This document shows, in pieces, positions 10,188-64,000 of a stretch of DNA of 64,000 nucleotides. This DNA comes from Planctomycetota bacterium (lineage in GTDB: Bacteria > Planctomycetota > UBA11346), in NCBI GenBank assembly GCA_013816485.1, contig JACDEI010000010.1, forward strand, positions 54,854 through 118,853, read 5' to 3'. Under the pieces are notes generated by a model, which was not told where the DNA came from, made no database searches, and worked only from the letters and a program-made list of their open reading frames with translations. The first letter of the stretch is position 1. Every line of letters begins with the position of its first letter. The position numbers and the translations under genes were made by a program.

Positions 10188-10202
10188 TTGCCACCGATGC
10201 AA

Positions 10203-10328: not shown

Positions 10329-10338
10329 TGGCCATCCG

Positions 10339-10818: not shown

Positions 10819-10837
10819 GGCCTGAAGGAAAACGATC

Positions 10838-11305: not shown

Positions 11306-11308
11306 GGG

Positions 11309-37832: not shown

Positions 37833-37972
37833 CCGGAGTCCGGAGTCCGGAGTCCGGAGTCTTGTGGATTCCGACCAATGCGTCTGCGTCCGTGCGCGTG
37901 ACGTCGTGGTTATCTGCTCGGCGGTGGCGTTGGACCTCGGGACCCCGGATCCCGGACCCCGGACCCCGGACT
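37833..37972. repeat. GTCCGGR-type tandem-heptamer inverted-repeat element: (CCGGAGT)x4, a 78-nt spacer, then (GACCCCG)x4. It lies between the metallophosphoesterase stop and the trpF start.
   Basis: Left arm tccggagtccggagtccggagtccggagtc. Spacer begins cttgtggattccgaccaatg. Right arm gggaccccggatcccggaccccggaccccggac. The arms pair perfectly with G-U wobble on the bottom-strand transcript. Confidence 0.8.
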
Positions 37973-39815: not shown

Positions 39816-41336
39816 TCACGGTTTTGCGCCAGCCTCCTGCAAACGCAGAGCCACCGCGATCAGCGCGGTTTGCACTGCGCTATTCGCCGGCGTGCCTTTG
39901 GTCTCGCCGTAGAGCAGCTTGAGCCGTTGTGCTTTCGCGCCGTCGGTGGCCAGGGCTTCCGCCTCGCTGACCTTGGTGGCGATCTCGTCGGCCGAGATCT
40001 TCGCTGCTAGGTCTGCGGTCGGCGTGGGCGACCAGTCCTCGACGAACTTCGCCAGCGCCTTCCAACGCGCGGCGCCCGGTTTCACCGTTTCGGCCTTCGG
40101 CCACGCGTCTTTGGCCAGCAGGTCGAGCGCGCTGATTGCGCGCTCGCGCACCGCGTAGCCGCCCCAGGTCTTGAGGAAGCCGCGCAGGGCGCTGACCGTC
40201 GGCTTGGCGCCGAGTTTGTCGAGTTCCTCGCCGGCGAGGCGTTCGCCCAGGTCGCGAGCCTTGGTGGTGGTCGGCAGTTCGGCGGGCCATTTCTGCACGA
40301 ACGTGCGCACCGCAGCACCCGATAGTTTCTCCGCGAGCTTCGTCAGCTCAGTGGCGGCCTCGCCATCCAGCACCGGCACCAGCCTGGATACCGCGCTGGC
40401 GGCTTCCATCGCCACATCACCGGCGATGGCGCAGCTCGCGGCCTGCTGGTAGGCAGCGTAGGCTTCGCGGTGCTTCTTCTTGGTCTCCAGATCCTTGCCC
40501 TGGGTGAGGGCGGCGGTGGCGCCAGCCAGCACCGGCGCGTCATTGAACACCACCGCTTTTTCAAACCATTCTGCGCTTGGAGTGTTGTGGTCGAGCCCAG
40601 GTTGTTCGAGGTAGATCAGGTGAGGGAACTTCTGCCCCCGGTAGTCCGCGTGTACGTCGATGGTGCCCGGCTTGTTGTAGTCCTCTGAACCAGTGACGAA
40701 GGCGAAGCGGTTGGCTTTGGCCAGCGCATCGATGCGTGTCGCCACGGCTTTGTCCGCCGGTGCACGGAAGGGGTTGCAGCCGATGAGGTAGATCGCTCCC
40801 CCGCTGAAGACATCGGCGAAGGGCACCGCCATTCGGCTGGCGACGCGTCCACCACCGGACTGGCCCATGGCATAGATGCGCTGGTTGTCGATGTGGTAAC
40901 GCGCGCGGATGTTGTGCACGCCATCGATGCTCAGGCGGATGCGGAACCACGGCGTGCGGTCGTTGTCGATCTTGGTGCCACCGACCCAGATGAGTTTGTG
41001 TTGGTCGCAAATCTCGGCGTATTTCCCAGGAGGCCCACCACCCAGGCCGGAGTTCACGTAGGCGATGAGGCCGTAGGGCACCGAGCCATCGTAACTCTTG
41101 GGTACGTAGATATCGTAGGGTTCCTGAGTCAGCTCATAACTGGCATTACTGGGCTCGGCTTGGTCTTTCGGAAAATTGTAGAGCGCGCCCATGCGCTCGA
41201 CGTACATCGCCCACGACGACATCGGCGAGCGTTCGCTGAAGGTAGTGGTGTAGCGGCCGGTGCGTGGCGCGTCAGCGCCGGTCAGACAGCCGACGACGGA
41301 CCACAGGATCACAGCCAGACGTAGTGGTGACATCAC
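39816..41336 (-). CDS. Secreted alpha/beta-hydrolase (esterase/depolymerase-like) with a C-terminal helical domain.
   Basis: Signal MMSPLRLAVILWSVVGCLTGADA. Nucleophile elbow YAMGQSGGG. Confidence 0.6.
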   Translation of the reverse strand: MMSPLRLAVILWSVVGCLTGADAPRTGRYTTTFSERSPMSSWAMYVERMGALYNFPKDQAEPSNASYELTQEPYDIYVPKSYDGSVPYGLIAYVNSGLGGGPPGKYAEICDQHKLIWVGGTKIDNDRTPWFRIRLSIDGVHNIRARYHIDNQRIYAMGQSGGGRVASRMAVPFADVFSGGAIYLIGCNPFRAPADKAVATRIDALAKANRFAFVTGSEDYNKPGTIDVHADYRGQKFPHLIYLEQPGLDHNTPSAEWFEKAVVFNDAPVLAGATAALTQGKDLETKKKHREAYAAYQQAASCAIAGDVAMEAASAVSRLVPVLDGEAATELTKLAEKLSGAAVRTFVQKWPAELPTTTKARDLGERLAGEELDKLGAKPTVSALRGFLKTWGGYAVRERAISALDLLAKDAWPKAETVKPGAARWKALAKFVEDWSPTPTADLAAKISADEIATKVSEAEALATDGAKAQRLKLLYGETKGTPANSAVQTALIAVALRLQEAGAKP

Positions 41337-41421
41337 GGACCTCGCCGGAAGCCTCCGGCAAGTCGTGCCCTGTCAATCAAACACCCGCCAGGATGTGCAG
41401 CCTGCGTCGATCGGGCGTGCG

Positions 41422-42252
41422 TTATTCCGGCGTCAGGTCGCGTGCCACCTGGCGCAGGGTCCGCAGGGTATCCTGGAGCAGGTCGGGCAGTTCCCCGAGG
41501 ACCATGGCGATGGCTGGGCGTTTGCCCGCGCGCAGCAGGTTTTCCAGCAGCACGCAGCGGTGGGCCAAACGTTGTGCGCCGATGATCTGACAGGAACCCT
41601 TCAGCTTGTGCGTGGCGCGTAACAACGCCTCGTCATCGGGCGCTCGCCCGCATGCGAGTACGGCCTGGAGGTGTCGCGGCGCCTCGCTGAGGAAGATCTG
41701 CACCATCTCGCCGCAGATGGCGTCGTCCCCGAGTTCCACCCGCAACCGCGCGAGCACCTGCGGATCGATCACGGTCTCTTGTGCGGGCGAGCCGACCAGC
41801 ACGACGCTGGTGATCGGGGTCGGTGATGGACCAGCGATCACAGGCAGGAAACGCGCGAGGGCATCGCTCAGCGCCTCGACCTGCACCGGCTTGGCGAGCA
41901 GGTCGTCCATGCCTGCGGTGTGGCAGCGTTCACGGTCGTCGGCGCTGACGTCGTTGCCCAGCGCCACCACTGGCAGGCGTGCGAGCTGGTGCACCGCTTC
42001 ACGCGCGCGCAGGTCACGGGTGGCCTGATAACCGTCGCGGTGCGGCAGGTAGCAGCACATCAGCACCAGATCATAGGCCTGGGTGGCGATGGCGGCGAGC
42101 GCAGCCTGGCCGTCGCCGACCCCATCCGCACCCAGGCCCAGACGCGCGAGATGGGCGGTGGTCAGGCGGCGGTGCATCACATCGTCATCCGCCACCAGGA
42201 TGCGACCGCTGAAGTAGCGAGCCGGCTGCCGTGGCGGTGATCCACCAATCAC
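41422..42252 (-). CDS. Response-regulator receiver domain fused to an Hpt phosphotransfer domain.
   Basis: REC: RILVADDDVMHRRL...DLVLMCCYLPHRDGYQATRDLR (phospho-Asp in the DLVLMC region). Hpt: LRATHKLKGSCQIIGAQRL (H-x-x-K-G). Confidence 0.75.
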   Translation of the reverse strand: MIGGSPPRQPARYFSGRILVADDDVMHRRLTTAHLARLGLGADGVGDGQAALAAIATQAYDLVLMCCYLPHRDGYQATRDLRAREAVHQLARLPVVALGNDVSADDRERCHTAGMDDLLAKPVQVEALSDALARFLPVIAGPSPTPITSVVLVGSPAQETVIDPQVLARLRVELGDDAICGEMVQIFLSEAPRHLQAVLACGRAPDDEALLRATHKLKGSCQIIGAQRLAHRCVLLENLLRAGKRPAIAMVLGELPDLLQDTLRTLRQVARDLTPE

Positions 42253-42830
42253 GGCTGTTTCACCAGGGATGCGGCCGGGATGTTCGCCGGCAGCGCGATG
42301 TACATGTGCCGCACGCCCCAGCGCCGAGCTTCGCTGTGGGTGATGAAACGCAGGTCGAAGTGTACGACACCGTTTTTGGCGCTCTGACGCATCGCTCCAC
42401 CGGTGTCGTCGACCATCGCCGTGCCGTAGCCGGGCACATCGACCATCAGGCGATAAGGAACGAGCTTGGGTTCGACCGCGATGCCGTAGGGGAACTTGGT
42501 CACGTCACGATTGATGGATGTGCGCCCATCCGAGAACAGGCCGCAGCAGATGGCGCATGGGCAGTAGGCGGTGGTCTTCACCTGCACCCAGCGCAGACCA
42601 TTCGCCGGTTCGATCACCGGCTTGGGCAGGAACTTCTCCTCCACCGTTATGATGCGCAGATACCGCGTGCTGCCCCAGCCGATCAACAGGCCGATTCCCA
42701 GCGTGGTTGCGGTCAGGCGTAGCGCCGCGAACCAGCCGTGGCGGTCACCGAGGGCGGCGAACCACCACGCCAGGACACGTCTGGTACCCCTGGTCCATGG
42801 ACGCCAAGCGGATGCGGGCATGCGCTGCAT
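42249..42830 (-). CDS. 3D-domain (MltA C-terminal-like) protein with an N-terminal TM anchor. It overlaps REC-Hpt by 4 nt.
   Basis: VKTTAYCPCAICCG...VDVPGYGTAMVDDTGGAM (three conserved Asp). Confidence 0.6.
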   Translation of the reverse strand: MQRMPASAWRPWTRGTRRVLAWWFAALGDRHGWFAALRLTATTLGIGLLIGWGSTRYLRIITVEEKFLPKPVIEPANGLRWVQVKTTAYCPCAICCGLFSDGRTSINRDVTKFPYGIAVEPKLVPYRLMVDVPGYGTAMVDDTGGAMRQSAKNGVVHFDLRFITHSEARRWGVRHMYIALPANIPAASLVKQP

Positions 42831-42946
42831 GGTGGGCGTGGTTCGTCACCTGCCAACCGCATCGACGATCTGGTCGACGGTGCATCCGCCACACCGGGGG
42901 GTCGATTCCGGATGACGGACGAGGTCAGCGCCCTAGGGTGGCGCGC

Positions 42947-43702
42947 ATGTCGGAATTCCTCGCTGCTGTGCTGGCCTTCCCCACCATCGCCTACAGCGTG
43001 CTGCTGGCCTTGGCAGTGTTGTATTGGTTGACCGTGATCATCGGTGCGCTCGACATTGATCTGTTCAGTCCCGAGGTCGGCGACGCAGGTGGCGACATGG
43101 CCACTGGTGGACACCACGGCCATGGCTTCCTGGAGTTTCTTTCGGTCGGGCGCGTGCCGGTGACTATCACGGCGTCGGTGTTCCTCTTCTTGGGGTGGTT
43201 TCTCTGCATGCTGGCCGAACTGCTGGTGCGAGCACCGTTGGCGTCGGTGGTCAGCGGGCCGGTGTTTTCACTCGCGCTGATCCCCGCGTCGATGATTCCG
43301 GCGGTGGTGATCACCGGATTGGTGGTCAGACCGCTGCGTCACCTGTTCAACCTGGTCAGCGAACACGGCGAGGCCGGCCTAGTCGGGCGTATGGTGCGCA
43401 TCTCCTCGCTGACTGTCGACCACCAATTCGGCACGGCGGTGTGCGACAACGCCGGCCCTGGGATCCTGATGAACGTCTTCTGCCGTCACGGTGTGCAGAT
43501 GAAACGCGATGACATGGCGGTGGTCGTGGAATTCGACGCCAGCAACAACCTCTACCTGGTCGCTCCGTTCAGCCACGTGCCGACCGACGTGGAAACAATC
43601 GTGACGGATAACGCCGGACTGCCGCCTGTCTCTTCGCCAGCGCAGGCTTCGACTCCGCCCCCGGCGGTTTCACTGGAAAGGCGGATGGAACCACCACAGT
43701 AG
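42947..43702 (+). CDS. NfeD/YqiJ-like membrane protein (three TM segments plus a C-terminal OB-fold-like domain). A flotillin partner is expected.
   Basis: MSEFLAAVLAFPTIAYSVLLALAVLYWLTVIIGALDIDLF...GRMVRISSLTVDHQFGTAVCDNAGPGILMNVFCRHGVQMKRDDMAVVVEF. A flotillin gene follows 49 nt downstream. Confidence 0.55.
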   Translation: MSEFLAAVLAFPTIAYSVLLALAVLYWLTVIIGALDIDLFSPEVGDAGGDMATGGHHGHGFLEFLSVGRVPVTITASVFLFLGWFLCMLAELLVRAPLASVVSGPVFSLALIPASMIPAVVITGLVVRPLRHLFNLVSEHGEAGLVGRMVRISSLTVDHQFGTAVCDNAGPGILMNVFCRHGVQMKRDDMAVVVEFDASNNLYLVAPFSHVPTDVETIVTDNAGLPPVSSPAQASTPPPAVSLERRMEPPQ

Positions 43703-43751
43703 CGCCCACTTGCCGTCCGCCTCTTAACCAAGCGGACCATGCGAAGCGGAG

Positions 43752-45857
43752 TTGGCCATGGCGCAGGAAGTCATCACTACCACCACCGGACTGACCGGGA
43801 TTCAGACCCTGTGGGTCGTCGGCGGTGCCGCAGGCGGCATCCTGCTGATCGGGATCATCCTCTTCATCCGCGCCTACTTCCGTAAAGTCGATCAGGGCTT
43901 TGCCATGATCGTCAACACTTTGCGCAATGAACCACTGGTGACCTTCACCGGTGCGCTGGTGATCCCGATTATCCACCGCGTCGAGATCATGGACATCTCG
44001 CTCAAGACCATTGAGGTCGACCGCCAGGGGACAAATGGCCTGATCTGTGCCGATAACATCCGCGCCGACATCAAGGTGACGTTCTTCGTGCGCGTCAACA
44101 AGACCGCCGAGGATGTGCTCAAAGTCGCCGGTTCGGTCGGTGTCGTGCGTGCCAGCGACCGTCGGACCCTGGAAGAACTGTTCCAGGCGAAGTTCTCCGA
44201 AGCGCTGAAAACCGTTGGTAAAAAGATGAACTTCATCGACCTCTACAACGAGCGCGATCAGTTCAAAGAGCAGATCGTGCGCATCATCGGTCGTGACCTG
44301 AACGGTTATAGCCTGGAAGACGCGGCGATTGACTTCCTGGAACAGACTCCGCTCAAGCTGCTCGATCCCGACAACATCCTCGACTCCGAAGGCCGCAAAA
44401 AGATCATCGACTTGACCACCCAGCAGCGCGTGAAGGCCAACGAGATCCAGCGCGAAGGTGAGAAGGTCATCAAGAAGCAGGACGTCGAAGCACGCGAAGC
44501 GCTGCTTGCCCTGGAGCGCCAGCAGGCCGAGGCGGAAGCCAAGCAGCACCGTGAGATCGCCACCAACCGCGCACGTGAGCAGGCGGAAGAGGCCAAGGTC
44601 CAGTTCGAAGAACACAAACGCGCCGAAGAAGCGCGCCTGAGTGCTGAACAAGAGATCGGCATCCTGCGTGAAAATTCCCAGCGCGAGGTCGAAGTCGCCG
44701 GCAAGAACCGCGAAGGCGCCGTCGCCGTCGAGATGGAACGCATCGAGAAAAACCGTGCACTCGAAGCCATCAGCCGCGAACGCGCGGTCGAGCTGACCAC
44801 CATCGAGAAGGAGAAGGTCCTGGCGGTGGAACGCAAAAACATCGCCGAGGTCATTCGCGAACGCGTGATGGTGGAAAAGAAGGTCGCTGAAGAAGAGGAG
44901 CGCATCAAGGACGTGCGCGCCACCATGGAGGCCAACCGTCACAAGGACGTCGCCATCACCAAGGCGACCCAGGAAGCGGAGATGTCCCGCATCAAGGAAG
45001 TGAAGATGGCGGAGGCCTCCGAGCAGTCGGCGGTACACGCCGCGCGCGAGAAGATCGTCACCGCGGATGCGGAGCAGACCTCGGCGGAGAAACAGGCGAT
45101 CGCCTCCATGCGTCGTGCCGAAGGCCATCAGGCGGAAGCCGCCGCCGAAGGCCTGGCCCAGGCCAAGGTCAAGGAAGCCGACGCCGTGGCGGTCGAGAAG
45201 CAGGGCTTTGCCAAGGCCCGTGTCATGGAAGCCGAAGCTGAAGCGGCGAAGAAACGCGGCTTGGCCGAGGTCGAAGTCAAACAAGCGTCGGCGCAGGCGA
45301 TCGAACAGGTCGGCGAGGCGGAAGCCTCCGCGATCGAGAACCGCATGCTCGCTGAAGCCAAGGGCCTGACCGAGAAAGCCACCGCCATGGGCAAGCTGCA
45401 CGGCGAAACGCGCGAACACGAAGAGTTCCGCATGCGTCTGGAGAAGCACGTCGAGGTCGAGAAGGTACGCATCCAGGGCGACGTCTCGATGGCGGAACAA
45501 CGCGCGCATGTGCTCGCCGAATCGCTCAAGAACGCCAAGTTCGAGATCGTCGGCGGCGACGGCGCGTTCTTCGACCGCTTCGTCAACGCGGTTGGTGCCG
45601 GCAAAGCGATCGATGCCACGGTGGCCAACAGCAAGGTCATCCAGCAACTCGGACGCGAGTACCTGGAAGAAGGCCGCAGCCTGCCGGATGATCTCAAGGG
45701 CGTGCTCAGCAGCTTCGGCTCCAACGACCTGAAGAACCTCTCCATCGCGGGCGTGCTGCAGAAACTGATGGCGGGCAAGGATCCGGCGAAGGTCTCGGCG
45801 CTGCTCAAGCAGGCGGCGACGCTCGGGTTGATCGAGCCCGACGACGACAAGGCGTGA
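43752..45857 (+). CDS. Flotillin-family SPFH/band-7 protein (YqiK-like), 701 aa, with a very long coiled-coil tail.
   Basis: N-terminal TM segment. SPFH core VTFTGALVIPIIHRVEIMDISLKTIEVDRQG...IRADIKVTFFVRV. About 350 aa of EA-rich heptads follow, e.g. EAEAKQHREIATNRAREQAEEAKVQFEEHKRAEEA. Confidence 0.85.
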   Translation: MAMAQEVITTTTGLTGIQTLWVVGGAAGGILLIGIILFIRAYFRKVDQGFAMIVNTLRNEPLVTFTGALVIPIIHRVEIMDISLKTIEVDRQGTNGLICADNIRADIKVTFFVRVNKTAEDVLKVAGSVGVVRASDRRTLEELFQAKFSEALKTVGKKMNFIDLYNERDQFKEQIVRIIGRDLNGYSLEDAAIDFLEQTPLKLLDPDNILDSEGRKKIIDLTTQQRVKANEIQREGEKVIKKQDVEAREALLALERQQAEAEAKQHREIATNRAREQAEEAKVQFEEHKRAEEARLSAEQEIGILRENSQREVEVAGKNREGAVAVEMERIEKNRALEAISRERAVELTTIEKEKVLAVERKNIAEVIRERVMVEKKVAEEEERIKDVRATMEANRHKDVAITKATQEAEMSRIKEVKMAEASEQSAVHAAREKIVTADAEQTSAEKQAIASMRRAEGHQAEAAAEGLAQAKVKEADAVAVEKQGFAKARVMEAEAEAAKKRGLAEVEVKQASAQAIEQVGEAEASAIENRMLAEAKGLTEKATAMGKLHGETREHEEFRMRLEKHVEVEKVRIQGDVSMAEQRAHVLAESLKNAKFEIVGGDGAFFDRFVNAVGAGKAIDATVANSKVIQQLGREYLEEGRSLPDDLKGVLSSFGSNDLKNLSIAGVLQKLMAGKDPAKVSALLKQAATLGLIEPDDDKA

Positions 45858-45864
45858 GCGGCAC

Positions 45865-46000
45865 GTCCGGAGTCCGGGGTCCGGAGTCCGGAGTCTTGTG
45901 GACGCGAGCCACCTCACGACTGGTGACCAATCATGACGTCGATCACGCACGTTGACCTCAAGCGCAAGGGACCCCGGACCCCGGACCCCGGACCCCGGAC
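45865..46000. repeat. GTCCGGR-type tandem-heptamer inverted-repeat element between the flotillin stop and the giant AAA+ gene start.
   Basis: Left arm gtccggagtccggggtccggagtccggagtc. Spacer starts cttgtggacgcgagcc...gaccaat. Right arm gggaccccggaccccggaccccggaccccggac. The spacer 5' end (cttgtgga...gaccaat) is shared with the 37833 copy. Confidence 0.8.
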
Positions 46001-46023
46001 GCTGACCTATCGGCCATGGTCCC

Positions 46024-49000
46024 ATGGTTGACACGCCGCCCCTCAACGCCGCCTTGGACGCCGGCACCTACGAAGTCGTGCGCAAACGCCTCGACTCCGT
46101 CGCGGCAGAGCTTTTGACCGAGGTCAGCGGGCTCAACGAACGACGCTTGTCGGTATTCGGTGCCTCGGCCACCACGCTGCTGGCGACCGAACACCTGCGC
46201 ACTGATCACAACTGTGTTCCACGCGACATCGTCGCGGTCGGCGATCGTTTGATCCTGGGTTACCAGGTACACATGGGCCTCAAGTCGACCACCGGCGTGG
46301 GCGATGTGTTCATGGAGGTGCGCTACGGCGACAATACCTTCCATCCGGTCGAGCGTTCGCTTTTCACCGGCGCGGCGTTCGAAAAGGACTTCGCCGAGAT
46401 CTTCCAGTACTACAAGGATGCGCGGCTCCTCCAACTCAAGCGCACCGACACCCACGTGCTGGCGGCGTTCCAGACCGGGCAACGCATCAGCGACCTGCGG
46501 GTCATGCGCTGGGCGCTGTCGAAGGACCGCACGTCCTGCATCTATGTCGACAACCGTGGTGCACCGGACTTCGTGCTGCCGCCGAGTCACGATTTCACCT
46601 GGGTGCGCACCACGCGCGACAACCATGTCCAAGGGTCACACCCGCATGTGAATGTACTCGACACCGTGTTCGTCGAGAGCATCCACGGTGACGTCACCAT
46701 CAAGATCGAGAACAACACCACGACTGGCGCGGGCATCCTCAACGATCCGGTGAAGGACCCGCATCAAGGCATGGATGATGCGGAGATCAGTTACGCGGAT
46801 CTGGACACCGTCATCCTGCTGAAGGTCCGCCCCTACCGCGAAAACGAGTTCCGCTACTACGTCTACAACAAGTTGACGCACGAAGCGGTGCGCATCGACG
46901 CCATCGGCCAGAGTTGTCAGCAATTGCCCGAAGGCCACGGCTTCATCTTCCCAGGCGGCTACTACCTGGCCAACGGCGAGCACAAGATCTTCCCGCAGGA
47001 TTTCAGCGGCATGCAGTTCGTGCGCGCCCTGCGGGCGCCCAACGGTGAAGACCTAGCCTACATCTACCACGAAGAAAATGACGGCGTCTACGTCATCCTG
47101 CGCTATAACCTGATCACGCGCAGCGTCGATCAGCCGCAGGTGTGCAACGGCTACAGCCTGTTCGCCGACGGTCGCCTGGCGCTCTTCCGCGCCCAGCCGG
47201 AACCCACGCGTCTGCACGCCATGCAGGTGTGGCAGACCCCGTTCGCCTCCGACGAACACGTTGGTGCATCACCGGTGCGCGATTCACCGCTGGGACGCAT
47301 CGGCAACCGCGACCTGGTACGTGGCATCAGTGATCTGCGCAACCTCCATCGCCTGATCACCAACCAGAAGCCGACGCGCGAGGCCTACGCCGAACTGCTC
47401 AAGCAGGTGGTGCGCATCAGCGACAGCTACCATTGGCTCGGCGGCGCCGAGGCCGGCCGCCTGAGTACGCTCATCGGTCAGGTGAAGGACGGCGTCAACG
47501 CCGCCATCGGCGAATTCGAGAAGGTCCTGCAACTCACCGCCCAGGCGGCGAGCCACATCGCCGGTCTGGAGGCTGCGGCAAAGGAGCTGTTGCGCACCCA
47601 GGCCCTGGAGACCAAGGCCACCATCGATGACTACGTACGCCCGCTCACCGAGCTGCGGCGTCAGCGCGGTGCGGTCGAAAGCGCGCGCGGCATCCGTTAC
47701 GCCGATGGAACGCGGCTGGATGCGCTCGACCAACGCCTCGCCAGCGCGGCACAGGAACTCAGCGCGTCGGCGGTCGAATTCCTGATGCGTCCAGAGGCGC
47801 TCGATAGCTACCAGTCGGAATTGGCAGCCAGCGAAAACCTGGTGCCGACGATTGCCACCGTGGTCGATGGCAAGGCCCCACGCGAGCGCGTCGACACCCT
47901 TGCCGGTGGCCTCGATCTGTTGGTGGAGACCGTCAATGGGCTGGAGATTGCCGACGCCAATGCGCGCACGGCGATCCTGGAGCGCATCTCCGCGGTCTAC
48001 GCCGCGCTTAATCGTGTGCGCGCGTTGCTCGAAGCACGTCGCCGTGAACTCGGCGCAAAAGAGGGCAAGGCCGGCTTTGCCGCGCAGCTCAGCCTGTTGG
48101 CGCAGGCGGTGGGCAACGCCATCGCGCTCAGCGACACCCCAGAGAAGTGCGACGAATTCCTGGGCAAGCTCATGCTCCAGCTCGAAGAATTGGAAGGCCG
48201 CTTCGCCGAGGTCGACACCTTCGTCGCCGAGCTGACGACCAAACGTGAGGAGATCTACGAGAGCTTCAGTGCGCGCAAACAGGCGTTGATGGACGAGCGC
48301 CAACGTCGTGCGGATGGCCTGGGGAACGCCGCCGACCGCGTCATCGCCGGCATCGTCCGCCGCGCCAAGACCTTTGCTGTCCTCGACGAACTGAACGCCT
48401 ACTTCGCTAGCGATCCGATGGTGCTCAAGGCGCGTTCGGTGATCACCGAATTGCGCGCTCTGGGCGCGACGGTCAAAGCCGACGACGCCGAAGGCCGCAT
48501 CAAGGCTGCGCGCGAGGACGGCGTGCGTGCGCTGCGCGATCGCAGCGAACTCTACGACGGCGAAGCGATCAAACTCGGTCGGCATCGTTTCAGTGTGAAC
48601 ACCCAGACGCTCGATCTGACCATGCTACCACGCGCCGATGCCGAAGGCCGCACGGGCATGTGGTTCCACCTCACCGGTACCGACTACTTCGCGCCGGTGG
48701 AGGATGCGACCTTTGCCGCCACCAATGGCTTCTGGCAGCAGGAGATCGTAGCCGAGACGCCGCAGATCTACCGCGGCGAATACCTTGCGTGGCAGGTGCT
48801 GACCGCGGCGGAGGCCGGCACCAACGGCCTGTCGTCGGCCAAACTGAAAGAGGCCGCGCTCACACGTGAAGCGCTGATGACGGTGGTGCGCACCATCGCG
48901 GGTGAGTTCTACGACCACGGCTACGATCGCGGCATCCACGACCACGACGCGGCGCTCATCCTCGAAGCCGTGCTGCATCTACGTGAGACTTGCGGCCTGC

Positions 49001-51315
49001 TGCGCCATCCACCGGCGGTGCGTGCGCTGGGTATCATCGCTTGGAGCGCGTTGGCCAAGGACCCCCGCGCCCGTGCCTGGGAACGCCAATGCCGCGCCCT
49101 GCACGATCTGCGGCGTCACCACGGTGACACGCCGGCGGTGGTCGCGTTGGCGAAGGATCTGTCGGCGGCAGTGCAGTCGTTCGCAGAGAAGGTAGGCATC
49201 GAATCCGCCCACGCCGATGCGGCGGGTCGTTACCTGGTCGAGGAGCTTGGCGAGGAGCCGCGTACGCACCTGGTGAAAAGCGGCGCCGCGGCGGATCTGG
49301 AAAAGCACTTCCTCGATCACCTGCGTGTCCTCGGTGCCGTCGATGCGCTGCGCGACGATCTGCGCGCGTTGCATGACGATCCGGTGGCCGCGCTCCGTCT
49401 GGCGCGCGCGTGGCTCGACGCCTTCATCGCCAAACAGGCGCCAACCCAGGCAGACCTTGCACCGGAAATCGCCGCGTGGCTGGTGGTCGGTGACAATCTG
49501 CCCTGTGAAGTGGTCCATGCCCGCACGCAGGTCGACCTCGACGCGTTGCTCGGTCAGCATCCGCGCATCGCCGAACGCAAACTGACGCTGCACATCGACG
49601 AGTTCGAAGCGCGCTTGCACCACTTCGCCACCGCCGTCGTTCCGGCTTTCCGCAGCTACCAGGAAACCCGCCGCCGTCTGCTGGAACGCGAACGCACCAT
49701 GCTGCGCATCGACGAACTCAAACCGCGCGTGCTCACTAGCTTCGTGCGCAACAAGTTGGTGAACGAGGTCTACCTGCCGCTCATCGGCGACAACCTCGCC
49801 AAACAGATGGGTGCACTCGGCGCCAGCAGGCGCACCGACCTGATGGGTATGCTGCTGCTCATCAGTCCACCTGGGTACGGCAAGACCACGCTGATCGAAT
49901 ACGTCGCCGCGGTGCTCGGTCTCGCGTTCGTGAAGATCAACGGCCCCGCGCTCGGCCATGAGGTCACCTCGGTGGACCCCGGCGCCGCGCCCAACGCCGC
50001 CGCCCGCCAGGAACTGGAAAAGCTCAATCTCGCCCTGGAGATGGGCAACAACATCGTGCTGATGATCGACGACATCCAGCACACCAGCCCGGAACTGCTG
50101 CAGAAATTCATTTCGCTCTGCGATGGCAGTCGGCGTATGGAAGGCGTGTGGCGGGGACGTGCGCGCACCTACGACCTGCGTGGCAAGAAGGTCGTGGTGG
50201 TGATGGCGGGCAACCCGTACACCGAATCCGGTGAGCAGTTCAAGATCCCCGACATGCTCGCCAACCGCGCCGACACCTACAACCTCGGCGACATTCTTGG
50301 CGGCCACGGCGAGGCCTTCGCGCTCAGCTACATCGAAAACGCCCTCACGGCGAATCCCGTGCTCGCTACGCTCGCCGGCCGGCCACAGCACGATCTCTAC
50401 CGCCTGTTGCGCATCACCGAAGGCGATGACGCAGTGCGCAGCGAACTGGAACATCCGTACTCCGCGCTAGAGATCGGCGATGTCACCGCGGTGCTGAAGC
50501 ACCTCAAACGCGTGCAGCAGATCCTGGGTCAGGTGAACGCGACCTACATCGCCAGCGCCGCCACGTCGGACGCCTACCGCGTCGAGCCGCCGTTCAAACT
50601 CCAGGGTTCCTACCGCAACATGGCCAAGATCGCGGCCAAGGTCGTGCCGCTGATGACCAGTGATGAACTGGAACAGATCATCCGTGACCACTACGCCGGT
50701 GAATCGCAGACGCTCACCACCGGCGCGGAAGCCAACTTGCTCAAGTTCAAGGCCATGAGCGGTACGCATACGCCGACCGAAGCCGCGCGCTGGGCCGACA
50801 TCTGCAAGATCTACACCCGTCGCCAGGAGCTCTCCGGCGCGGACGATCCCGCATCGAAGGCGGTCGTGCAGTTGGCCAAGGTTTCGGATCAGCTCGGTGA
50901 ATTGCGCGCGGTGGTGCATGCGGCGGGCACCGCTGCTGCCAATGCTGCCACCGTCGCGCATGATCGCGGTGTCGACGAGCGACGGGCGCAGGCGAAACAC
51001 CTGGAGTCGCTCGTCGAACGTCTCGCCAGCGGATTGGAAGCGCTCAAGAACACGACGATGGCGGCCCCCACCGTCATCCCGGCGCCGAAGGTCGAGATCA
51101 TCAACACCCTGCCGAAGTACTACGCCAACCTCTACGCCCAGCAGATCCAGGTGATCGAGAAGACCCTGATCCCGGCGGTCGAAGCCATCGGCGCGGTGAT
51201 CGGTCAGACGCTCAATGCGCGCGAACACCTGGGTGGCATCGCCAACGAACTGCGAGCGTTGATGGCGAGACAGGCGAAGTCGGAAGTGATCGAAGGGCGT
51301 CCAGAAGCGGAATGA
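46024..51315 (+). CDS. Giant (1763-aa) multidomain protein. It has a ~480-aa beta-rich N-terminal region and a long helical or coiled-coil middle. A single AAA+ ATPase module sits at about residues 1270-1420, followed by a ~340-aa helical C-terminal region. Family not recognised.
   Basis: Walker A LLLISPPGYGKTTLIEYVA. Walker B NIVLMIDDIQHTSPELL. Sensor/Arg region VVVVMAGNPYTESGEQFKIPDMLANRADTYNLGD. The N-terminus has beta-strand-like YVYNKLTHEAVRIDAIGQSC and VYVILRYNLITRSV segments. Confidence 0.8.
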   Translation: MVDTPPLNAALDAGTYEVVRKRLDSVAAELLTEVSGLNERRLSVFGASATTLLATEHLRTDHNCVPRDIVAVGDRLILGYQVHMGLKSTTGVGDVFMEVRYGDNTFHPVERSLFTGAAFEKDFAEIFQYYKDARLLQLKRTDTHVLAAFQTGQRISDLRVMRWALSKDRTSCIYVDNRGAPDFVLPPSHDFTWVRTTRDNHVQGSHPHVNVLDTVFVESIHGDVTIKIENNTTTGAGILNDPVKDPHQGMDDAEISYADLDTVILLKVRPYRENEFRYYVYNKLTHEAVRIDAIGQSCQQLPEGHGFIFPGGYYLANGEHKIFPQDFSGMQFVRALRAPNGEDLAYIYHEENDGVYVILRYNLITRSVDQPQVCNGYSLFADGRLALFRAQPEPTRLHAMQVWQTPFASDEHVGASPVRDSPLGRIGNRDLVRGISDLRNLHRLITNQKPTREAYAELLKQVVRISDSYHWLGGAEAGRLSTLIGQVKDGVNAAIGEFEKVLQLTAQAASHIAGLEAAAKELLRTQALETKATIDDYVRPLTELRRQRGAVESARGIRYADGTRLDALDQRLASAAQELSASAVEFLMRPEALDSYQSELAASENLVPTIATVVDGKAPRERVDTLAGGLDLLVETVNGLEIADANARTAILERISAVYAALNRVRALLEARRRELGAKEGKAGFAAQLSLLAQAVGNAIALSDTPEKCDEFLGKLMLQLEELEGRFAEVDTFVAELTTKREEIYESFSARKQALMDERQRRADGLGNAADRVIAGIVRRAKTFAVLDELNAYFASDPMVLKARSVITELRALGATVKADDAEGRIKAAREDGVRALRDRSELYDGEAIKLGRHRFSVNTQTLDLTMLPRADAEGRTGMWFHLTGTDYFAPVEDATFAATNGFWQQEIVAETPQIYRGEYLAWQVLTAAEAGTNGLSSAKLKEAALTREALMTVVRTIAGEFYDHGYDRGIHDHDAALILEAVLHLRETCGLLRHPPAVRALGIIAWSALAKDPRARAWERQCRALHDLRRHHGDTPAVVALAKDLSAAVQSFAEKVGIESAHADAAGRYLVEELGEEPRTHLVKSGAAADLEKHFLDHLRVLGAVDALRDDLRALHDDPVAALRLARAWLDAFIAKQAPTQADLAPEIAAWLVVGDNLPCEVVHARTQVDLDALLGQHPRIAERKLTLHIDEFEARLHHFATAVVPAFRSYQETRRRLLERERTMLRIDELKPRVLTSFVRNKLVNEVYLPLIGDNLAKQMGALGASRRTDLMGMLLLISPPGYGKTTLIEYVAAVLGLAFVKINGPALGHEVTSVDPGAAPNAAARQELEKLNLALEMGNNIVLMIDDIQHTSPELLQKFISLCDGSRRMEGVWRGRARTYDLRGKKVVVVMAGNPYTESGEQFKIPDMLANRADTYNLGDILGGHGEAFALSYIENALTANPVLATLAGRPQHDLYRLLRITEGDDAVRSELEHPYSALEIGDVTAVLKHLKRVQQILGQVNATYIASAATSDAYRVEPPFKLQGSYRNMAKIAAKVVPLMTSDELEQIIRDHYAGESQTLTTGAEANLLKFKAMSGTHTPTEAARWADICKIYTRRQELSGADDPASKAVVQLAKVSDQLGELRAVVHAAGTAAANAATVAHDRGVDERRAQAKHLESLVERLASGLEALKNTTMAAPTVIPAPKVEIINTLPKYYANLYAQQIQVIEKTLIPAVEAIGAVIGQTLNAREHLGGIANELRALMARQAKSEVIEGRPEAE

Positions 51316-51349
51316 TGCGGATCGGGTGGGTGCCCGACCCGCACGGTGG

Positions 51350-52186
51350 TCATTCCCGCACGGTCACGGTGATGCCCGGACGGACGAGGGCGAAGACCAG
51401 CGCGATGTCCTCCTGCACCATCCGCACACAGCCGTGGCTGCCATTTTTCTCCAGCCACTGCGCCGGTTCCGCGCCGGTGAAGCCGTGGATGCCGATGCCC
51501 TTGAAGTGGTTGTCGGCGCGCGCTTCGAAGCCGATCCAGTAGCCGCCGAGGATATTCTCGGGATCGTCGGGTTTGAGGATCTTGCCGGTGTCGGGATTAC
51601 GCCATTCGGGATTACGCACGCATTGCCGCACGGTGGTGGCGCCGAGCGGTGTCGGCGAGCTATCGCGGCCCAAACCGCAGCGGAAAGCTCCGAGGAGCGT
51701 GGTGCCGCGCCAGATCATCAGGCGGTAGGCAGAGCGCGAGACCACCACTTCGAGCGGCACGCTGGCGAGATCGAGCACCGCGACCTGCTGACCGATCGAC
51801 AGCGCCTTGGGTTCGAGGCCAGGGTTCATGCGCTGGATCAGTTCGATGCTCGTGCGGTACCGCCGCGCGAGGATGCTCGGAGTCTCGCCCGCGGCGATGA
51901 TATGGGTGCGAACGCCGCAACGATCACGCAGGGGGAGGGCGTCGCTGAAGAGACGGCGACAGAACGGCGCCACGCGGTCGCCGAGGGCGATGGCCTCGGC
52001 CGGCGGCAAGGTCGGCAAGGTGGTGCTGACCAGTTCGATGAGCGGCACCACGGCGGCCGGATCAGTGCTGGCGTCGCTGAACTGCTGGTCGAGATCGGCG
52101 CCTTGCGCCAACGCGACGGTGGCGAGCACCAGCAGGCAGCTGGCCACGCGGATCGCCACTCCTCGCATGTCACGCGGGCGGATCAT
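51350..52186 (-). CDS. L,D-transpeptidase (YkuD domain) with a LysM domain and a signal peptide.
   Basis: LysM: IIAAGETPSILARRYRTSIELIQRMNPGLEPKALSIGQQVAVLD. Catalytic GIHGFTGAEPAQWLEKNGSHGCVRM. ATG at 52186 checked. Confidence 0.75.
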   Translation of the reverse strand: MIRPRDMRGVAIRVASCLLVLATVALAQGADLDQQFSDASTDPAAVVPLIELVSTTLPTLPPAEAIALGDRVAPFCRRLFSDALPLRDRCGVRTHIIAAGETPSILARRYRTSIELIQRMNPGLEPKALSIGQQVAVLDLASVPLEVVVSRSAYRLMIWRGTTLLGAFRCGLGRDSSPTPLGATTVRQCVRNPEWRNPDTGKILKPDDPENILGGYWIGFEARADNHFKGIGIHGFTGAEPAQWLEKNGSHGCVRMVQEDIALVFALVRPGITVTVRE

Positions 52187-52839
52187 CGTTTGCGCCGCAG
52201 GTCGTTGCCGTCCTTGCGCGTCTGTTTGGCCTGCTCCTGGTGGCTGTAACGTTCTTCGCCTGGGCCCCACGGATCGCCATGGTTGTGGTAGCCGTTCACT
52301 TCCCAGAAGCCGCGGCGGTCTTGCGTCAGTAGTTCGAAACCGTTGACCCACTTCGCGCCTTTCCACGCCCACAATTTCGGCACCACCACGCGTGCCGGGC
52401 CGCCGTGTTCGACATCCAGCGGTTCGCCATCGGCTTCGGTGACGACCAACGCATCGCTGTCGAGCACATCGGCGAGCGCGGTGTTGGTGGTGTAACCGCC
52501 GTAGCCGTGTTGCATGACGTGGGTGCACCCCGCGTTTGGCTTGGCCAACGCCAACAGATCACGCACACGGTAGCCGCCCCATACGAAGTCGTAACGCGAC
52601 CAAGTAGTGACGCAGTGCATGTCCGCTTGCACGCGCACGAACGGCAGTGCTTGGAGGCCAGCCCAATCGAGTTCGATGGGATTCGCACACGCGCCCCAGA
52701 TGCGCATGTGCCACTGCTCGGTGCTCACCTGTGGCGTTGGGCCGTAGGTCAGGACCGGCCACTTGGTGGTGTTGTATTGGCCGTCCGGCAGGCGTGGTTT
52801 ATCCGCTGGATGCGTCTGGATGCGTTCGACGTTGCTCAC
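52183..52839 (-). CDS. Sulfite-oxidase-family molybdopterin oxidoreductase, short YuiH-like form.
   Basis: HCVTTWSRYDFVWGGYRVRDLL...DGEPLDVEHGGPARVVVPKLWAWKGAKWVNGFEL. Confidence 0.65.
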   Translation of the reverse strand: MSNVERIQTHPADKPRLPDGQYNTTKWPVLTYGPTPQVSTEQWHMRIWGACANPIELDWAGLQALPFVRVQADMHCVTTWSRYDFVWGGYRVRDLLALAKPNAGCTHVMQHGYGGYTTNTALADVLDSDALVVTEADGEPLDVEHGGPARVVVPKLWAWKGAKWVNGFELLTQDRRGFWEVNGYHNHGDPWGPGEERYSHQEQAKQTRKDGNDLRRKR

Positions 52840-53192
52840 GCTGTCTGCACCTTGGTCTCAGGCACGCAGATCAGGAAGGGCTCGGCCCACTGCGTCGCAT
52901 CAGCGAGCGACCACACCACTTGTCCCGCCTGATCCGGTGCGGCGATGCGTGCCAAGCGGAGGCCGTGATCGCCGCCGGTGACGAGGCGTGCCGGACCATC
53001 GCCGCTTTCTTCAATAGGGGTGTACTGCGCTGCGGCGGGGCCATCCTTCCAGCCGGTGACCGCACACCAATGCCACTGCCCATCACCGAGATCGAGGTGC
53101 ACCGCCGTGATGGCATGCCCAGGCCCGGTGACGTTGAACGTCGCCATCACCGCCTCGTCGAGGTTGTCATTGGGTTCAATATCAATGTACAT
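52836..53192 (-). CDS. Hypothetical protein (118 aa) translationally coupled to the Mo-oxidoreductase gene (4-nt overlap).
   Basis: An ORF only. No family recognised. Confidence 0.4.
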   Translation of the reverse strand: MYIDIEPNDNLDEAVMATFNVTGPGHAITAVHLDLGDGQWHWCAVTGWKDGPAAAQYTPIEESGDGPARLVTGGDHGLRLARIAAPDQAGQVVWSLADATQWAEPFLICVPETKVQTA

Positions 53193-53193
53193 G

Positions 53194-54132
53194 TCAGGCC
53201 TTCGGCGGCAGAGCTTCTAACGGATTCTTGAGCAGGCTTAAGCCGTGGATCCTCCACGGCTCCACGCGACGGGTCGTCGGCGCGCTACGTTTCTTGAAGC
53301 GCTTATGCTGCCAGAAGTACTGGCCGGGGACCGCACTGACCATCGCGCCGAGCAGGTCCATCGACGCCTGCGTCAACGCGCTCTCGTCGCCGGCGTCCGC
53401 GGCCAGCGGGCGTCCGATCACCAAGCAGAATTCGCCAGCGCGGCGACGGACGCACAGGCCAGGGACGATCGGTACACGGGCCTTCTTGGCGAAGAATGCC
53501 GGTCCGGCATGGCAGTCGGTCTCTATGCCCATGAACACCGCACGCGCACCTTCCTCATTGGTTGGTGCCTGATCGGCCATCAGGCCGACGGGGCAGCCAT
53601 TGCGTAGTCCGCGCAGGGCCTGCACCGCTGTGGTGCGATCACCACGGCGCGTCAGCAGCACGGTGATGCCGGCTTTGGCGCGCTGGGCGTTGGTGGCGGC
53701 ATCGACCGCCTCGTTGTGCTGGGCCTTGGCGTAGGCGAAAAATTTCTCCAGTAGGCGTGCGAGCCCGTGCGCGCCCAGATCCCAGTTACCCAGATGCGGC
53801 GTCAGGAACACGCAGCCGGGATGACGGCGCAGCACCAGCGCCAGCCAAGCCGGATTGCTGGTCGTCAGGTGGCGTTCACCACCATCGACACCGCCGATGG
53901 TCCACAGTTCGGTGAAACTCGCCCCCATGCTGGCGTAGGAGCGCCGGACCACGTCGCGTCGCTGGGTTCCACGCAGGCCAAGCGTGGCATGCGCACAACC
54001 GCTCGCCACCCCACGGCGCACGCCGAGGTGGAACACCAGCACGCCGAGACTGCCGCCAAGCCGGCTGGCGGTATCGACCGCCAGCCCGGACAACGCGCGC
54101 AGCAACGGCAGCATGATCCAACGGGTGAGCAT
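53194..54132 (-). CDS. Lipid A biosynthesis lauroyl/myristoyl acyltransferase family protein (LpxL/HtrB-like).
   Basis: HLGNWDLGAHGLARLL (HX4D-type acyltransferase motif region), GLMADQAPTNEEG, WQHKRFKKR C-terminal tail. Start at 54132 (MLTRWIMLPLL). The 491-aa ORF extension is rejected. Confidence 0.7.
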   Translation of the reverse strand: MLTRWIMLPLLRALSGLAVDTASRLGGSLGVLVFHLGVRRGVASGCAHATLGLRGTQRRDVVRRSYASMGASFTELWTIGGVDGGERHLTTSNPAWLALVLRRHPGCVFLTPHLGNWDLGAHGLARLLEKFFAYAKAQHNEAVDAATNAQRAKAGITVLLTRRGDRTTAVQALRGLRNGCPVGLMADQAPTNEEGARAVFMGIETDCHAGPAFFAKKARVPIVPGLCVRRRAGEFCLVIGRPLAADAGDESALTQASMDLLGAMVSAVPGQYFWQHKRFKKRSAPTTRRVEPWRIHGLSLLKNPLEALPPKA

Positions 54133-54152
54133 GGGGCGGCAATGTCGGCAAA

Positions 54153-54273
54153 GTCCGGAAGTCCGGAAGTCCGGAAGTCCGGAAGTCCGTCCTGAGGAAG
54201 CGTCGAACAGGATCGGAAGCGCAACCGCGACAGCTCCGGCCACGAGACTTCCGGACTTCCGGACTTCCGGACC
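54153..54273. repeat. GTCCGGA-type tandem-octamer inverted-repeat element: (GTCCGGAA)x4, spacer, then (GACTTCCG)x3. It lies 21 nt upstream of the acyltransferase start and is followed by (CCCCAT)x3 at 54281-54302.
   Basis: Left arm gtccggaagtccggaagtccggaagtccggaagtccg. Right arm gacttccggacttccggacttccggacc, which is its reverse complement. Confidence 0.8.
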
Positions 54274-54430
54274 GTGGCAATCCCATCCCCATCCCCATCC
54301 CATACCCGCCCCACATGCCATCCGGGCGCATTTGGCATGCCGTTGGCCCACTGCGCTTGTCAGAATGCACTCGCCCGCTAGGTTCCGCCGCCCGCAAAAG
54401 GCCGCATCGCAGCGGCGACTGGAGCATGTC

Positions 54431-54679
54431 ATGGCCATCAAGCGCGTCTGGATCGAAGAAGGCTGCATCGTCTGCAATGCCTGCGAGACCACCTGTCCCG
54501 AGGTCTTCAACGTCACCGAAGACAGCTGCCACATCCGTGCCGAGGTGCGCACCGATGGCAAGCAGACCACCAATCTGACGGAGCGCAGCGACCTCAGCGG
54601 ATCGTTCGGCGACGAACTGGCCGACCAGATCCAGGAAGCCGCCGAAGGCTGCCCGGTCGAGGTCATCAAGTTCGAATAA
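54431..54679 (+). CDS. Small [4Fe-4S] ferredoxin.
   Basis: CIVCNACETTCP plus a distal EGCPVEVI cysteine. Length 82 aa. Confidence 0.75.
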   Translation: MAIKRVWIEEGCIVCNACETTCPEVFNVTEDSCHIRAEVRTDGKQTTNLTERSDLSGSFGDELADQIQEAAEGCPVEVIKFE

Positions 54680-58121: not shown

Positions 58122-58233
58122 CCCGGAGTCCGGGGTCCGGGGTCCGGAGTCGTGGCATACCGCCGCTGAGGTCATGCCTCCGTTATGGTGCGCGAGGAAG
58201 GACTCCGGACTCCGGACTCCGGACACCGGACGG
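58122..58233. repeat. GTCCGGR-type tandem-heptamer inverted-repeat element between the rsfS stop and the ftsY start.
   Basis: Left arm cccggagtccggggtccggggtccggagtc. Spacer cgtggcataccgccgctgaggtcatgcctccgttatggtgcgcgaggaag. Right arm gactccggactccggactccggacaccggacgg. Confidence 0.8.
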
Positions 58234-61495: not shown

Positions 61496-62638
61496 GTGAC
61501 CGCCATCTACCTCGATTGGAACGCCACCGCGCCGCTCAGCGCTGTCGCCCGCGCTGCATGGCTGTCGGCGCAGGACGACGCGTGGGGCAATCCTGGGTCG
61601 GTGCATGATCAGGGGCAACGCGCGCGCCACGCGATCGATCAGGCCAAGGCGACCTGCGCGCGGGTGCTCTGCTGCAGGACTAATGAACTCATCGTCACCA
61701 GCGGCGGTACCGAAGCGAATGCGTTGGCGATCCATGCGGCAGCAGAGTCCGCGTCGGCGAACGGAGGTAACGCTGCGTTGATCCTGGCCTCGGCGATCGA
61801 TCACAGTTCGGTGCTGCGTAACGCGGAGCTGTACGGACGTCTGGTGAAGCTGCCGGTCGATCAGCAGGGGCGTTTGCATCCACAGGTCGTGCAGGAGGCG
61901 ATGAAGGATAAGCCTGCGCTGGTGTGCTTTCAGTTCGCCAACAACGAACTCGGAACACGACAGGATGTTTCGGCGCTGGTTGCCGCCGTTCGTGCGGTGT
62001 CACCGCAGACGCGGGTGTTGCTCGATTGCGCGCAAGGAGCGGGCAAGGCGATCATCGATCTGCGTGCGCTCGACGTCGATTTTTCCAGCATCGCCGGTCA
62101 CAAGTTCGGAGCGCCGAAAGGGGTCGGGCTGCTCTATGTGAAAAACGGTGTGCGCTTGCCACCGCTCATCGCTGGTGGACGGCAACAGCAGGATCGTCGT
62201 AGCGGGACCGAGGACGCGGCGGGAATCACCGCTCTTGCTGCCGCGTTGTCAGCAGCCGCGACCCACGCCGAGGAAGAGGACATCCGTCAGCGCCTGCTGC
62301 TCGAATCCGCCTTTGCCCGCATCGTTAGGGACCTGCCACAAGCCCAGTGGCTGGCGCATGCGGCAGAACGTCTGCCCAACACATTGAGTCTGGCTCATCC
62401 CGGCATCGCCAACGAAACGTTGGTGATGCGTTTGGATCTGGCTGGCATCGCCGTATCCACCGGTGCGGCGTGCATGGCGGCGCGCGGCGAGCAGAGCCAT
62501 GTCATCGCTGCTCTTGGTATTGCTCCAGATCTTGCCCGCGGAGTCATCCGGGTGTCGATCGGCTCTACCACCACGGTTGCTGACCTTGATGTATTTGTCG
62601 CGACCTACGTGCGCGAGGTGCGCGCACTCGTACGGTGA
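61496..62638 (+). CDS. Cysteine desulfurase / class-V aminotransferase (NifS/IscS-like).
   Basis: IYLDWNATAP, LIVTSGGTEANALAI, PLP-lysine context SIAGHKFGAPKGVGLLYVK, active-site loop STGAACMA. Confidence 0.85.
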   Translation: MTAIYLDWNATAPLSAVARAAWLSAQDDAWGNPGSVHDQGQRARHAIDQAKATCARVLCCRTNELIVTSGGTEANALAIHAAAESASANGGNAALILASAIDHSSVLRNAELYGRLVKLPVDQQGRLHPQVVQEAMKDKPALVCFQFANNELGTRQDVSALVAAVRAVSPQTRVLLDCAQGAGKAIIDLRALDVDFSSIAGHKFGAPKGVGLLYVKNGVRLPPLIAGGRQQQDRRSGTEDAAGITALAAALSAAATHAEEEDIRQRLLLESAFARIVRDLPQAQWLAHAAERLPNTLSLAHPGIANETLVMRLDLAGIAVSTGAACMAARGEQSHVIAALGIAPDLARGVIRVSIGSTTTVADLDVFVATYVREVRALVR

Positions 62639-62771
62639 CGTGCTCCCTGGGAGCGCCGGCAGCCTGTCGGCAGAGTCGAATCACGGTGACCTGCGAAGTA
62701 AGCGAATCTCATCTCTGATTGCCCCTGGCCGGCAAGCTGCCGGCGCTCCCAGGGAGCTGTCGCCGATGTTC

Positions 62772-63899: not shown

Positions 63900-64000
63900 T
63901 CTTTCCGGGGAATTTGCTGTTAATGGAACTGCCTCCGGTTAAGTCATGATCATTGATCATGGCGTCGTCCGATCGGCACATTCAGCCCAGTCCTCATCAG

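Follow-up and report, generated by a model that had tools for sequence, protein, structure and literature searches.

A YqiJ-like membrane protein, a flotillin and a giant MoxR-like AAA+ protein encoded together in a Planctomycetota genome and conserved as a gene trio across bacterial phyla

Flotillins and their NfeD partners occur widely in bacteria, yet the mechanism by which they work is poorly understood, and we know of no energy-consuming partner for either of them. The locus described here lies in a 64,000-nucleotide (nt) stretch of the genome of a Planctomycetota bacterium (GenBank assembly GCA_013816485.1, contig JACDEI010000010.1, positions 54,854 to 118,853), referred to below as the window, and it consists of three consecutive genes that encode a small membrane protein related to YqiJ, a flotillin and a giant AAA+ protein. 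The three genes, hereafter the trio, and the element that lies between the second and the third of them are the following (lengths in amino acids, aa):

42947..43702, + strand: YqiJ/YuaF-like small inner-membrane protein, 251 aa, identified from the open reading frame (ORF) and its translation
43758..45857, + strand: flotillin (SPFH/Band_7), 699 aa, identified by Pfam, by identity to an NCBI protein and by BLASTP to YqiK
45864..46001, strand unassigned: intergenic hairpin element with inverted GTCCGGR arms
46024..51315, + strand: giant soluble protein, 1,763 aa, with DUF3686 and AAA+ domains

The three genes form one operon. A preliminary description of the window, made from the DNA letters alone, had already placed a three-gene cluster at this position, and the placement was borne out by the + strand ORFs 42947-43702, 43752/43758-45857 and 46024-51315. 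Its statement that the first two genes are directly followed by a giant AAA+ gene was likewise confirmed: 166 nt separate the flotillin stop codon from the giant gene, whose product carries DUF3686, DUF7902, AAA and AAA_5 domains.

The trio is kept together in at least eight bacterial phyla. In a survey of one genome per species in GTDB, searched with an alignment of the giant protein, relatives of this protein were found in at least 592 species, and the 80 best loci, which come from Planctomycetota, Myxococcota, Actinomycetota, Gamma- and Betaproteobacteria, Acidobacteriota, Lentisphaerota and Eremiobacterota, were analysed, with flotillin and small-protein genes being counted by hidden Markov model (HMM) scans of all ORFs. 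A flotillin gene of ~700 codons was found upstream of the giant gene and on the same strand in every genome locus that has upstream DNA (79/79), and it lies within 462 nt of the giant gene in 77 of these 79, many of the spacings falling between -4 and +20 nt; a 4-nt overlap between the two is seen at many of the actinobacterial loci. At least 72 of the 80 loci also carry a homologue of the small protein upstream of the flotillin. The reverse test started from metagenome contigs retrieved with the flotillin, the giant gene being scored at the 70 loci with at least 600 nt of downstream DNA: it was found directly downstream of the flotillin at 62 of them, and the small protein was found upstream of the flotillin at 65 of 70 metagenome loci with enough upstream DNA. 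The pairwise distances of the flotillin and of the giant protein are closely correlated (r = 0.94, Mantel 0/999, 76 loci), and together with the gene-order counts this correlation indicates that the trio has been inherited as a unit. The preliminary description had named relatives without the giant gene as the sign of an adjacency that is merely incidental; the genome and metagenome counts, alongside the correlated distances, exclude this explanation, and the same linkage figures uphold its proposal that a yqiJ–yqiK-type pair is here joined to the giant gene. A conserved fourth gene was not found across the phyla, the additions being lineage-specific only.

The giant gene is missing from eight of the 70 metagenome loci (L101, L106, L112, L120, L143, L146, L151 and L157), which encode the small protein and a long flotillin of 46-52% identity and lack the giant gene within the 1.3-7 kb of downstream DNA available. 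Such pair-only variants could show what the ATPase contributes. In the remaining two of the 79 genome loci the flotillin and the giant gene are separated by unrelated insertions of 3.4 kb (L077, 6558-9950) and 6.4 kb (L081, 3563-9926), so that the linkage of the two genes evidently tolerates insertions; an alpha/beta-hydrolase-like ORF and an OmpA-like protein with thrombospondin-type repeats are among the products encoded by these inserts.

The flotillin is recognized by its Band_7 domain (PF01145, residues 61-187, 33.3 bits against a cut-off of 23.6) and by BLASTP similarity to E. coli YqiK (29% identity over 473 aa, E 3e-35). A length of 701 aa had been given for it, which holds only if translation begins at the upstream TTG at 43752; the ATG at 43758 yields 699 aa and is the preferred start, since it has a GGAG 6 nt upstream and since the resulting protein is identical throughout, and in length, to NCBI entry H0W78_06180, a protein of a Planctomycetes metagenome-assembled genome. 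An N-terminal hydrophobic membrane anchor (maximum Kyte–Doolittle value over 19 residues, KD19, of 2.41 in the window from residue 19) is followed by the SPFH domain (~46-225) and by a helical region (~205-642) that does not contain a single proline, and in which E makes up 19.5% and A 18.4% of residues 226-600. The long E/A-rich segment noticed at the outset is thus real: the EAKRQ-rich stretch spans residues 219-544, compared with 203-441 in YqiK, which makes the charged helical stretch ~90-130 residues longer than that of YqiK. The description of the flotillin as unusually long was not upheld, as the flotillin ORFs that adjoin the giant gene have a median length of 696 aa (76 loci). Thousands of flotillin relatives were returned by the homology search, nearly all of the 120 listed being 610-756 aa long, and ~700 aa is the normal length for this flotillin clade. 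A tie between the extra length and the giant gene was considered and found to be unsupported, as the eight loci that lack the giant gene encode flotillins of ~690-745 aa. Towards the C-terminus a GGDGxFFDRF segment is conserved, with columns G599-F605 invariant. Sequence and profile searches of the PDB with the flotillin gave no match.

The small protein has three hydrophobic segments (windows ~2-41, 64-103 and 96-130), a β-rich, putatively OB-like C-terminal domain and a final tail rich in Pro, Ser, Thr and Ala. Its relationship to YqiJ rests on profile–profile comparison with hhalign, because the Pfam family YqiJ_N scores 19.5 bits on it, under the 23-bit cut-off, and matches at E <= 0.01 in only three of 23 members of its family. 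The profile of this 23-member family aligns with E. coli YqiJ at a probability of 94.3% (E 9.6e-8, 137 columns), from the second and third transmembrane (TM) segments to the C-terminal domain, and the Hymenobacter orthologue is annotated by NCBI as DUF1449, the YqiJ family. The same profile gives a weak match (E 0.29) to the OB domain of B. subtilis YuaF (2k14), again at the C-terminal domain, and a PDB sequence search with the small protein gave no match. Between hydrophobic segments 1 and 2 (residues 36-60) lies the loop GGDMATGGHHGHGF, which had been singled out as an unusual Gly/His-rich feature. The loop is present as described and is not unusual: across the family it is hypervariable, 3-117 aa long and rich in G, A and D, and 18 of 74 homologues have at least three His residues in it, some of them far more than the window protein, so that a His-rich loop is a recurrent family trait and not a peculiarity of the window. 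E. coli YqiJ also has D/H in this loop, and in the family, with homologues at L003, L011, L048 and L053 as examples, it is often made up of D-x-H, G-H-G or (A/E/G)-rich repeats. The composition of this low-complexity insert suggests a metal-binding or a disordered-spacer function, and where it is His-rich it could possibly bind metal.

The giant protein has no transmembrane segment and is soluble. Pfam finds DUF3686 (594 bits, residues 30-470), DUF7902 (591-675), AAA and AAA_5 in it, and from its N-terminus to its C-terminus it comprises a helix, a predicted β-propeller (DUF3686, ~50-405), a long helical region that includes DUF7902, an AAA+ module (~1240-1500) and a helical C-terminal part. 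The propeller, which is new in this analysis, is modelled from an AlphaFold2 (AF2) prediction and from matches to known β-propellers. An AF2 model of residues 1151-1763 (pLDDT, the predicted local distance difference test score, of 78) contains an AAA+ α/β domain with a β-hairpin preceding the sensor-1 strand, and the fold of the module is closest to that of MoxR-type ATPases with their pre-sensor-1 β-hairpin. ATPases of the MoxR type, among them CbbQ and NorQ, have a chaperone-like remodelling activity. The Walker A motif PPGYGKTT (1282-1289), the Walker B residues DD (1349-1350), N1397 and R1415 are invariant among 38 sequences; judged by their positions, N1397 would be the sensor-1 Asn and R1415 is a candidate Arg finger, and the invariance of all four suggests that the ATPase motor is probably active. 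Between phyla the protein keeps ~50% identity over ~1,760 aa, which implies that a large and so far unstudied machine is under strong selection.

The databases name this protein differently, as 'DNA repair ATPase' (NCBI) and 'ATPase involved in DNA repair' (Pfam), from which it could be supposed that it acts in DNA repair and that the membrane proteins encoded beside it are unrelated neighbours. Apart from the names themselves, this idea can draw on weak matches to RuvB_N and RuvB, which are restricted to the P-loop and lie far below the cut-offs (E 6.5e-4 and 1.7e-4). Pfam and NCBIfam found no nuclease, helicase or DNA-binding domain in the giant protein, its gene is linked to those of membrane proteins in every phylum examined, and no paper was found that backs the name, which is without support in these analyses; a role in DNA repair is therefore considered highly improbable.

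In several lineages the trio forms part of a longer operon. At 12 proteobacterial loci it is preceded by genes for DUF2170 (a CesT/Tir-like chaperone) and PspA_IM30, and genes for a rhomboid and for PLDc_2 often follow: the rhomboid gene comes after the giant gene, or overlaps with it, in seven proteobacterial loci, and PLDc_2 lies downstream of the giant gene in seven loci. At several Pseudomonas-type loci the rhomboid gene overlaps the stop codon of the giant gene by 4 nt and is followed by PLDc_2 (HKD); it occupies 15187-15765 in L044 and 15417-16106 in L055, with five to six further proteobacterial loci arranged alike. On the megaplasmid pQBR103 of P. fluorescens SBW25 (L164, NC_009444.1 85112-97641) the trio belongs to a nine-gene operon, in which it is preceded by genes for PspA, a rhomboid, DUF2491, DUF350, DUF1190 and glutathionylspermidine synthase, and on a Hymenobacter plasmid (Bacteroidota) a Tir-chaperone gene and PspA precede it. 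The partner genes in these extended operons are membrane-stress or membrane-dynamics genes, and the recurrence of PspA, rhomboid, PLD and polyamine genes beside the trio suggests that it handles membrane stress.

An operon of this type has been described in silico, by comparative genomics, where it was noted to be joined in some cases by CesT/Tir-PspA and a PLD hydrolase, whilst PspA-less 'abbreviated operons' were found to be widely distributed (Ravi et al. 2024, mSystems, PMC11237479). The supplement to that study lists a Dokdonia neighbourhood with a 'Betapropeller+Coiled-coil+AAA-ATPase' protein, and the paper offers no quantification, fold assignment or function for the operon (PMC11237479). 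The window trio has the same proteins in the same order and with the same domain architectures; unlike the full form it is accompanied by no PspA, CesT or PLD gene, the CesT/Tir-PspA dyad being absent, and it therefore represents the 'abbreviated' form. The extended versions, with CesT/DUF2170, PspA and PLD, are reproduced by the proteobacterial, Bacteroidota and pQBR103 loci, and the pQBR103 operon unites two PspA neighbourhood classes that Ravi et al. listed apart. In qualitative terms the window copy does not extend the in-silico description already published; what is added here are the near-obligate linkage statistics, the co-variation of the two proteins, the assignment to the MoxR-like class and the equation of the giant protein with DUF3686. 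No paper mentioning DUF3686 or PF12458 was found.

The distribution of the trio is patchy, extending to megaplasmids and linear plasmids and, within Pseudomonas, to only some of the species, a pattern that would suit an accessory or conflict system as well. On such an account the trio would be an anti-phage system of the abortive-infection type, in which a membrane sensor-scaffold is combined with a large NTPase and, in some versions, with an effector of the PLD family. Defence systems often include large multidomain NTPases, and PLD-fold proteins, such as might be encoded by the PLDc_2 genes at seven loci, include nucleases. PADLOC, run on the three proteins and on the ORF at 51326-52249, returned only P-loop matches to IetA and mad8 (E 0.004-0.007), and no copy was found among 50,697 phage records. 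The neighbours in the window are cell-envelope and housekeeping genes rather than defence genes, the recurrent partners elsewhere are PspA, CesT and polyamine genes, and the ~50% identity that the giant protein keeps between phyla would be very high for a defence gene. With these observations on the other side, a defence function is regarded as improbable.

The reading that we favour for the observed gene order, co-inheritance, domain content, fold class and conservation of catalytic motifs, and to which we assign a probability of roughly 0.55, is that the flotillin provides a scaffold, that the YqiJ-like protein is its NfeD-type partner, and that the giant MoxR-like ATPase remodels a flotillin/PspA assembly, or the clients of such an assembly, during envelope stress. 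The physical contacts, oligomeric states, substrate and physiological trigger that we infer for this system are as follows. The flotillin would be anchored by its N-terminal hydrophobic hairpin and would oligomerize through the SPFH domain and the ~400-residue helical region, giving rise to a dome-like or patch-like assembly on the cytoplasmic side of the inner membrane. The YqiJ-like protein, with its three TM segments, would contact the flotillin through its putatively OB-like C-terminal domain, in the manner of NfeD proteins and their SPFH partners, and the giant protein may dock on this scaffold via its N-terminal β-propeller and helical region or, in the extended operons, on PspA instead. 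Envelope or membrane stress would then trigger a MoxR-like AAA+ ring to spend ATP on assembling, remodelling or disassembling the flotillin/PspA polymer or its clients.

Several observations weigh against the remodelling interpretation. As a rule, MoxR ATPases work together with proteins that have a VWA domain; scans of the three proteins and of neighbouring genes in the window revealed no such domain, and the Walker B motif of the giant protein is DD and not the usual DE. An HMM of the YjfJ-type PspA found no PspA in the 64-kb window or at the non-proteobacterial genome loci, so that the link between the window trio and PspA is an extension from other phyla. The eight pair-only metagenome loci imply that the flotillin can work without the giant protein, the patchy and plasmid-borne distribution described above has to be set on the same side, and no experimental work on any member of the trio was found in the literature.

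A different arrangement of the same parts would be a quality-control cage like that of HflK/C-FtsH, in which the giant AAA+ protein, housed in a flotillin dome or controlled by it, acts as an unfoldase or extractase of damaged membrane proteins, with proteolysis supplied by other proteins such as the rhomboid of the extended operons. AAA+ machines housed in SPFH cages are known, HflK/C-FtsH being the example, and the rhomboid gene adjoins the giant gene in the seven proteobacterial loci and belongs to the pQBR103 operon. In Staphylococcus aureus, FloA-NfeD is reported to stabilize unfolded membrane proteins (PMC11222466). The window trio and HflK/C-FtsH have in common an SPFH scaffold that is genetically coupled to an AAA+ protein, the physical coupling being hypothetical here; they differ in that the bulk of the window flotillin, judging by the topology of YqiK and FloT, is predicted to be cytoplasmic and not periplasmic. 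Furthermore, Pfam finds no peptidase domain in the giant protein, which differs from FtsH in this respect, in having no TM anchor and in belonging to a MoxR-like rather than a classic AAA+ clade. The rhomboid is not adjacent to the trio in the window or in most phyla, and a flotillin dome may not have room for a hexamer of 1,763-aa subunits. The cage is thus a possible arrangement that we hold to be clearly less probable than remodelling of the scaffold by the giant protein.

In E. coli yqiJ–yqiK and B. subtilis yuaF–floT a small multi-TM protein with a C-terminal β domain is likewise encoded directly upstream of a flotillin; in E. coli this pair is followed by sibD/ibsD and not by a giant ATPase gene, and YqiK is ~146 aa shorter than the window flotillin, mainly in the helical region. 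CbbQ and NorQ are stand-alone ATPases of ~260 aa that work with VWA-domain adaptors, in contrast to the window module, which forms part of a protein of 1,763 aa with a predicted β-propeller and long helices, has no VWA domain detected with it and shares only 12-14% identity with them. The likeness to Vps4 and ESCRT-III is conceptual only, in that the ATPase is encoded beside PspA, a member of the ESCRT-III superfamily, in some lineages; Pfam finds no MIT domain in the giant protein, which distinguishes it from Vps4.

A bolder form of the remodelling interpretation can be put forward, as speculation that we consider rather unlikely in all its parts: the giant MoxR-like AAA+ protein may be an ATP-driven remodeller of bacterial flotillin/PspA polymers, a functional analogue of Vps4 or of FtsH in its cage that comes from a different clade, with its propeller recognizing the conserved flotillin C-terminus. 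According to a review, no Vps4-like ATPase is known in bacteria, and an energy-dependent cycle for bacterial SPFH/ESCRT-III-like scaffolds, which is what the bolder form would provide if true, is reported there as not yet found (PMC7619361). The operon itself binds a flotillin almost obligatorily to an ATPase of ~1,760 residues. The analysis supplies handles in the MoxR-like motor, the putative β-propeller docking domain and the invariant C-terminal motif of the flotillin, and tractable hosts are available in P. fluorescens SBW25 with pQBR103, Proteus mirabilis, Vibrio campbellii, myxobacteria and Streptomyces.

The GTCCGGR repeat that had been noticed between the flotillin and the giant gene is real. 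Its inverted arms (45864-45895 and 45970-46001) contain four GTCCGGR heptamers each, are 91% complementary and enclose a 74-nt spacer, and the RNA is predicted to fold into a long hairpin with -94 kcal/mol (z = -5.2). The same element recurs at 37838-37971 and 58128-58224, the three copies having arms of three to four heptamers around spacers of 55-105 nt that are not conserved and are unrelated in sequence; the window contains 14 matches to the GTCCGGR pattern where 0.01 would be expected. All three copies are located between ORFs, with the ATG of the following gene only a few nt downstream, and those at 37.8 kb and 45.9 kb also come after the stop codon of a preceding co-directional gene. 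No T-run follows the hairpin at 45864-46001, which is therefore not a canonical terminator, and no Rfam family matched it. As none of the 83 related loci has the element, not even the closest ones (L003 and L004, whose giant proteins are 84-85% identical), a part in the conserved module was rejected, and it is best read as a dispersed, genome-specific intergenic element of the REP/MITE-like kind (repetitive extragenic palindrome or miniature inverted-repeat transposable element). If it behaves like REP elements, it might determine the ratio of flotillin to ATPase expression.

The genes that border the trio are the following:

41422-42252, - strand: receiver-Hpt (RR-Hpt) protein, upstream of the trio and divergent
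42249-42830, - strand: 3D-domain protein, upstream of the trio and divergent
51350-52528, opposite strand to the trio: LysM-YkuD L,D-transpeptidase, convergent, the next gene downstream of the trio

With divergent neighbours upstream and a convergent neighbour downstream, the cluster consists of exactly three genes. A + strand ORF at 51326-52249 was considered as a fourth gene of the operon and rejected, having no Pfam match and lying opposite the sequence that encodes the YkuD/LysM protein. A scan of 42200-51700 found no promoter-like site, and terminator-like sites only at chance level; Rfam and tRNA scans of the window gave no match. No defence or mobile-element genes were seen in the flanks of the trio (39816-42830 and 51350-54669), which contain envelope genes (for the 3D-domain protein, the LysM-YkuD protein and a protein of the lipid A acyltransferase family) alongside those for the receiver-Hpt protein and a protein with a molybdopterin oxidoreductase domain. 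Away from the trio, the G+C content is lower (0.60) in two 2-kb bins, 10001-12000 and 62001-64000, than in the rest of the window, where it is usually 0.62-0.69.

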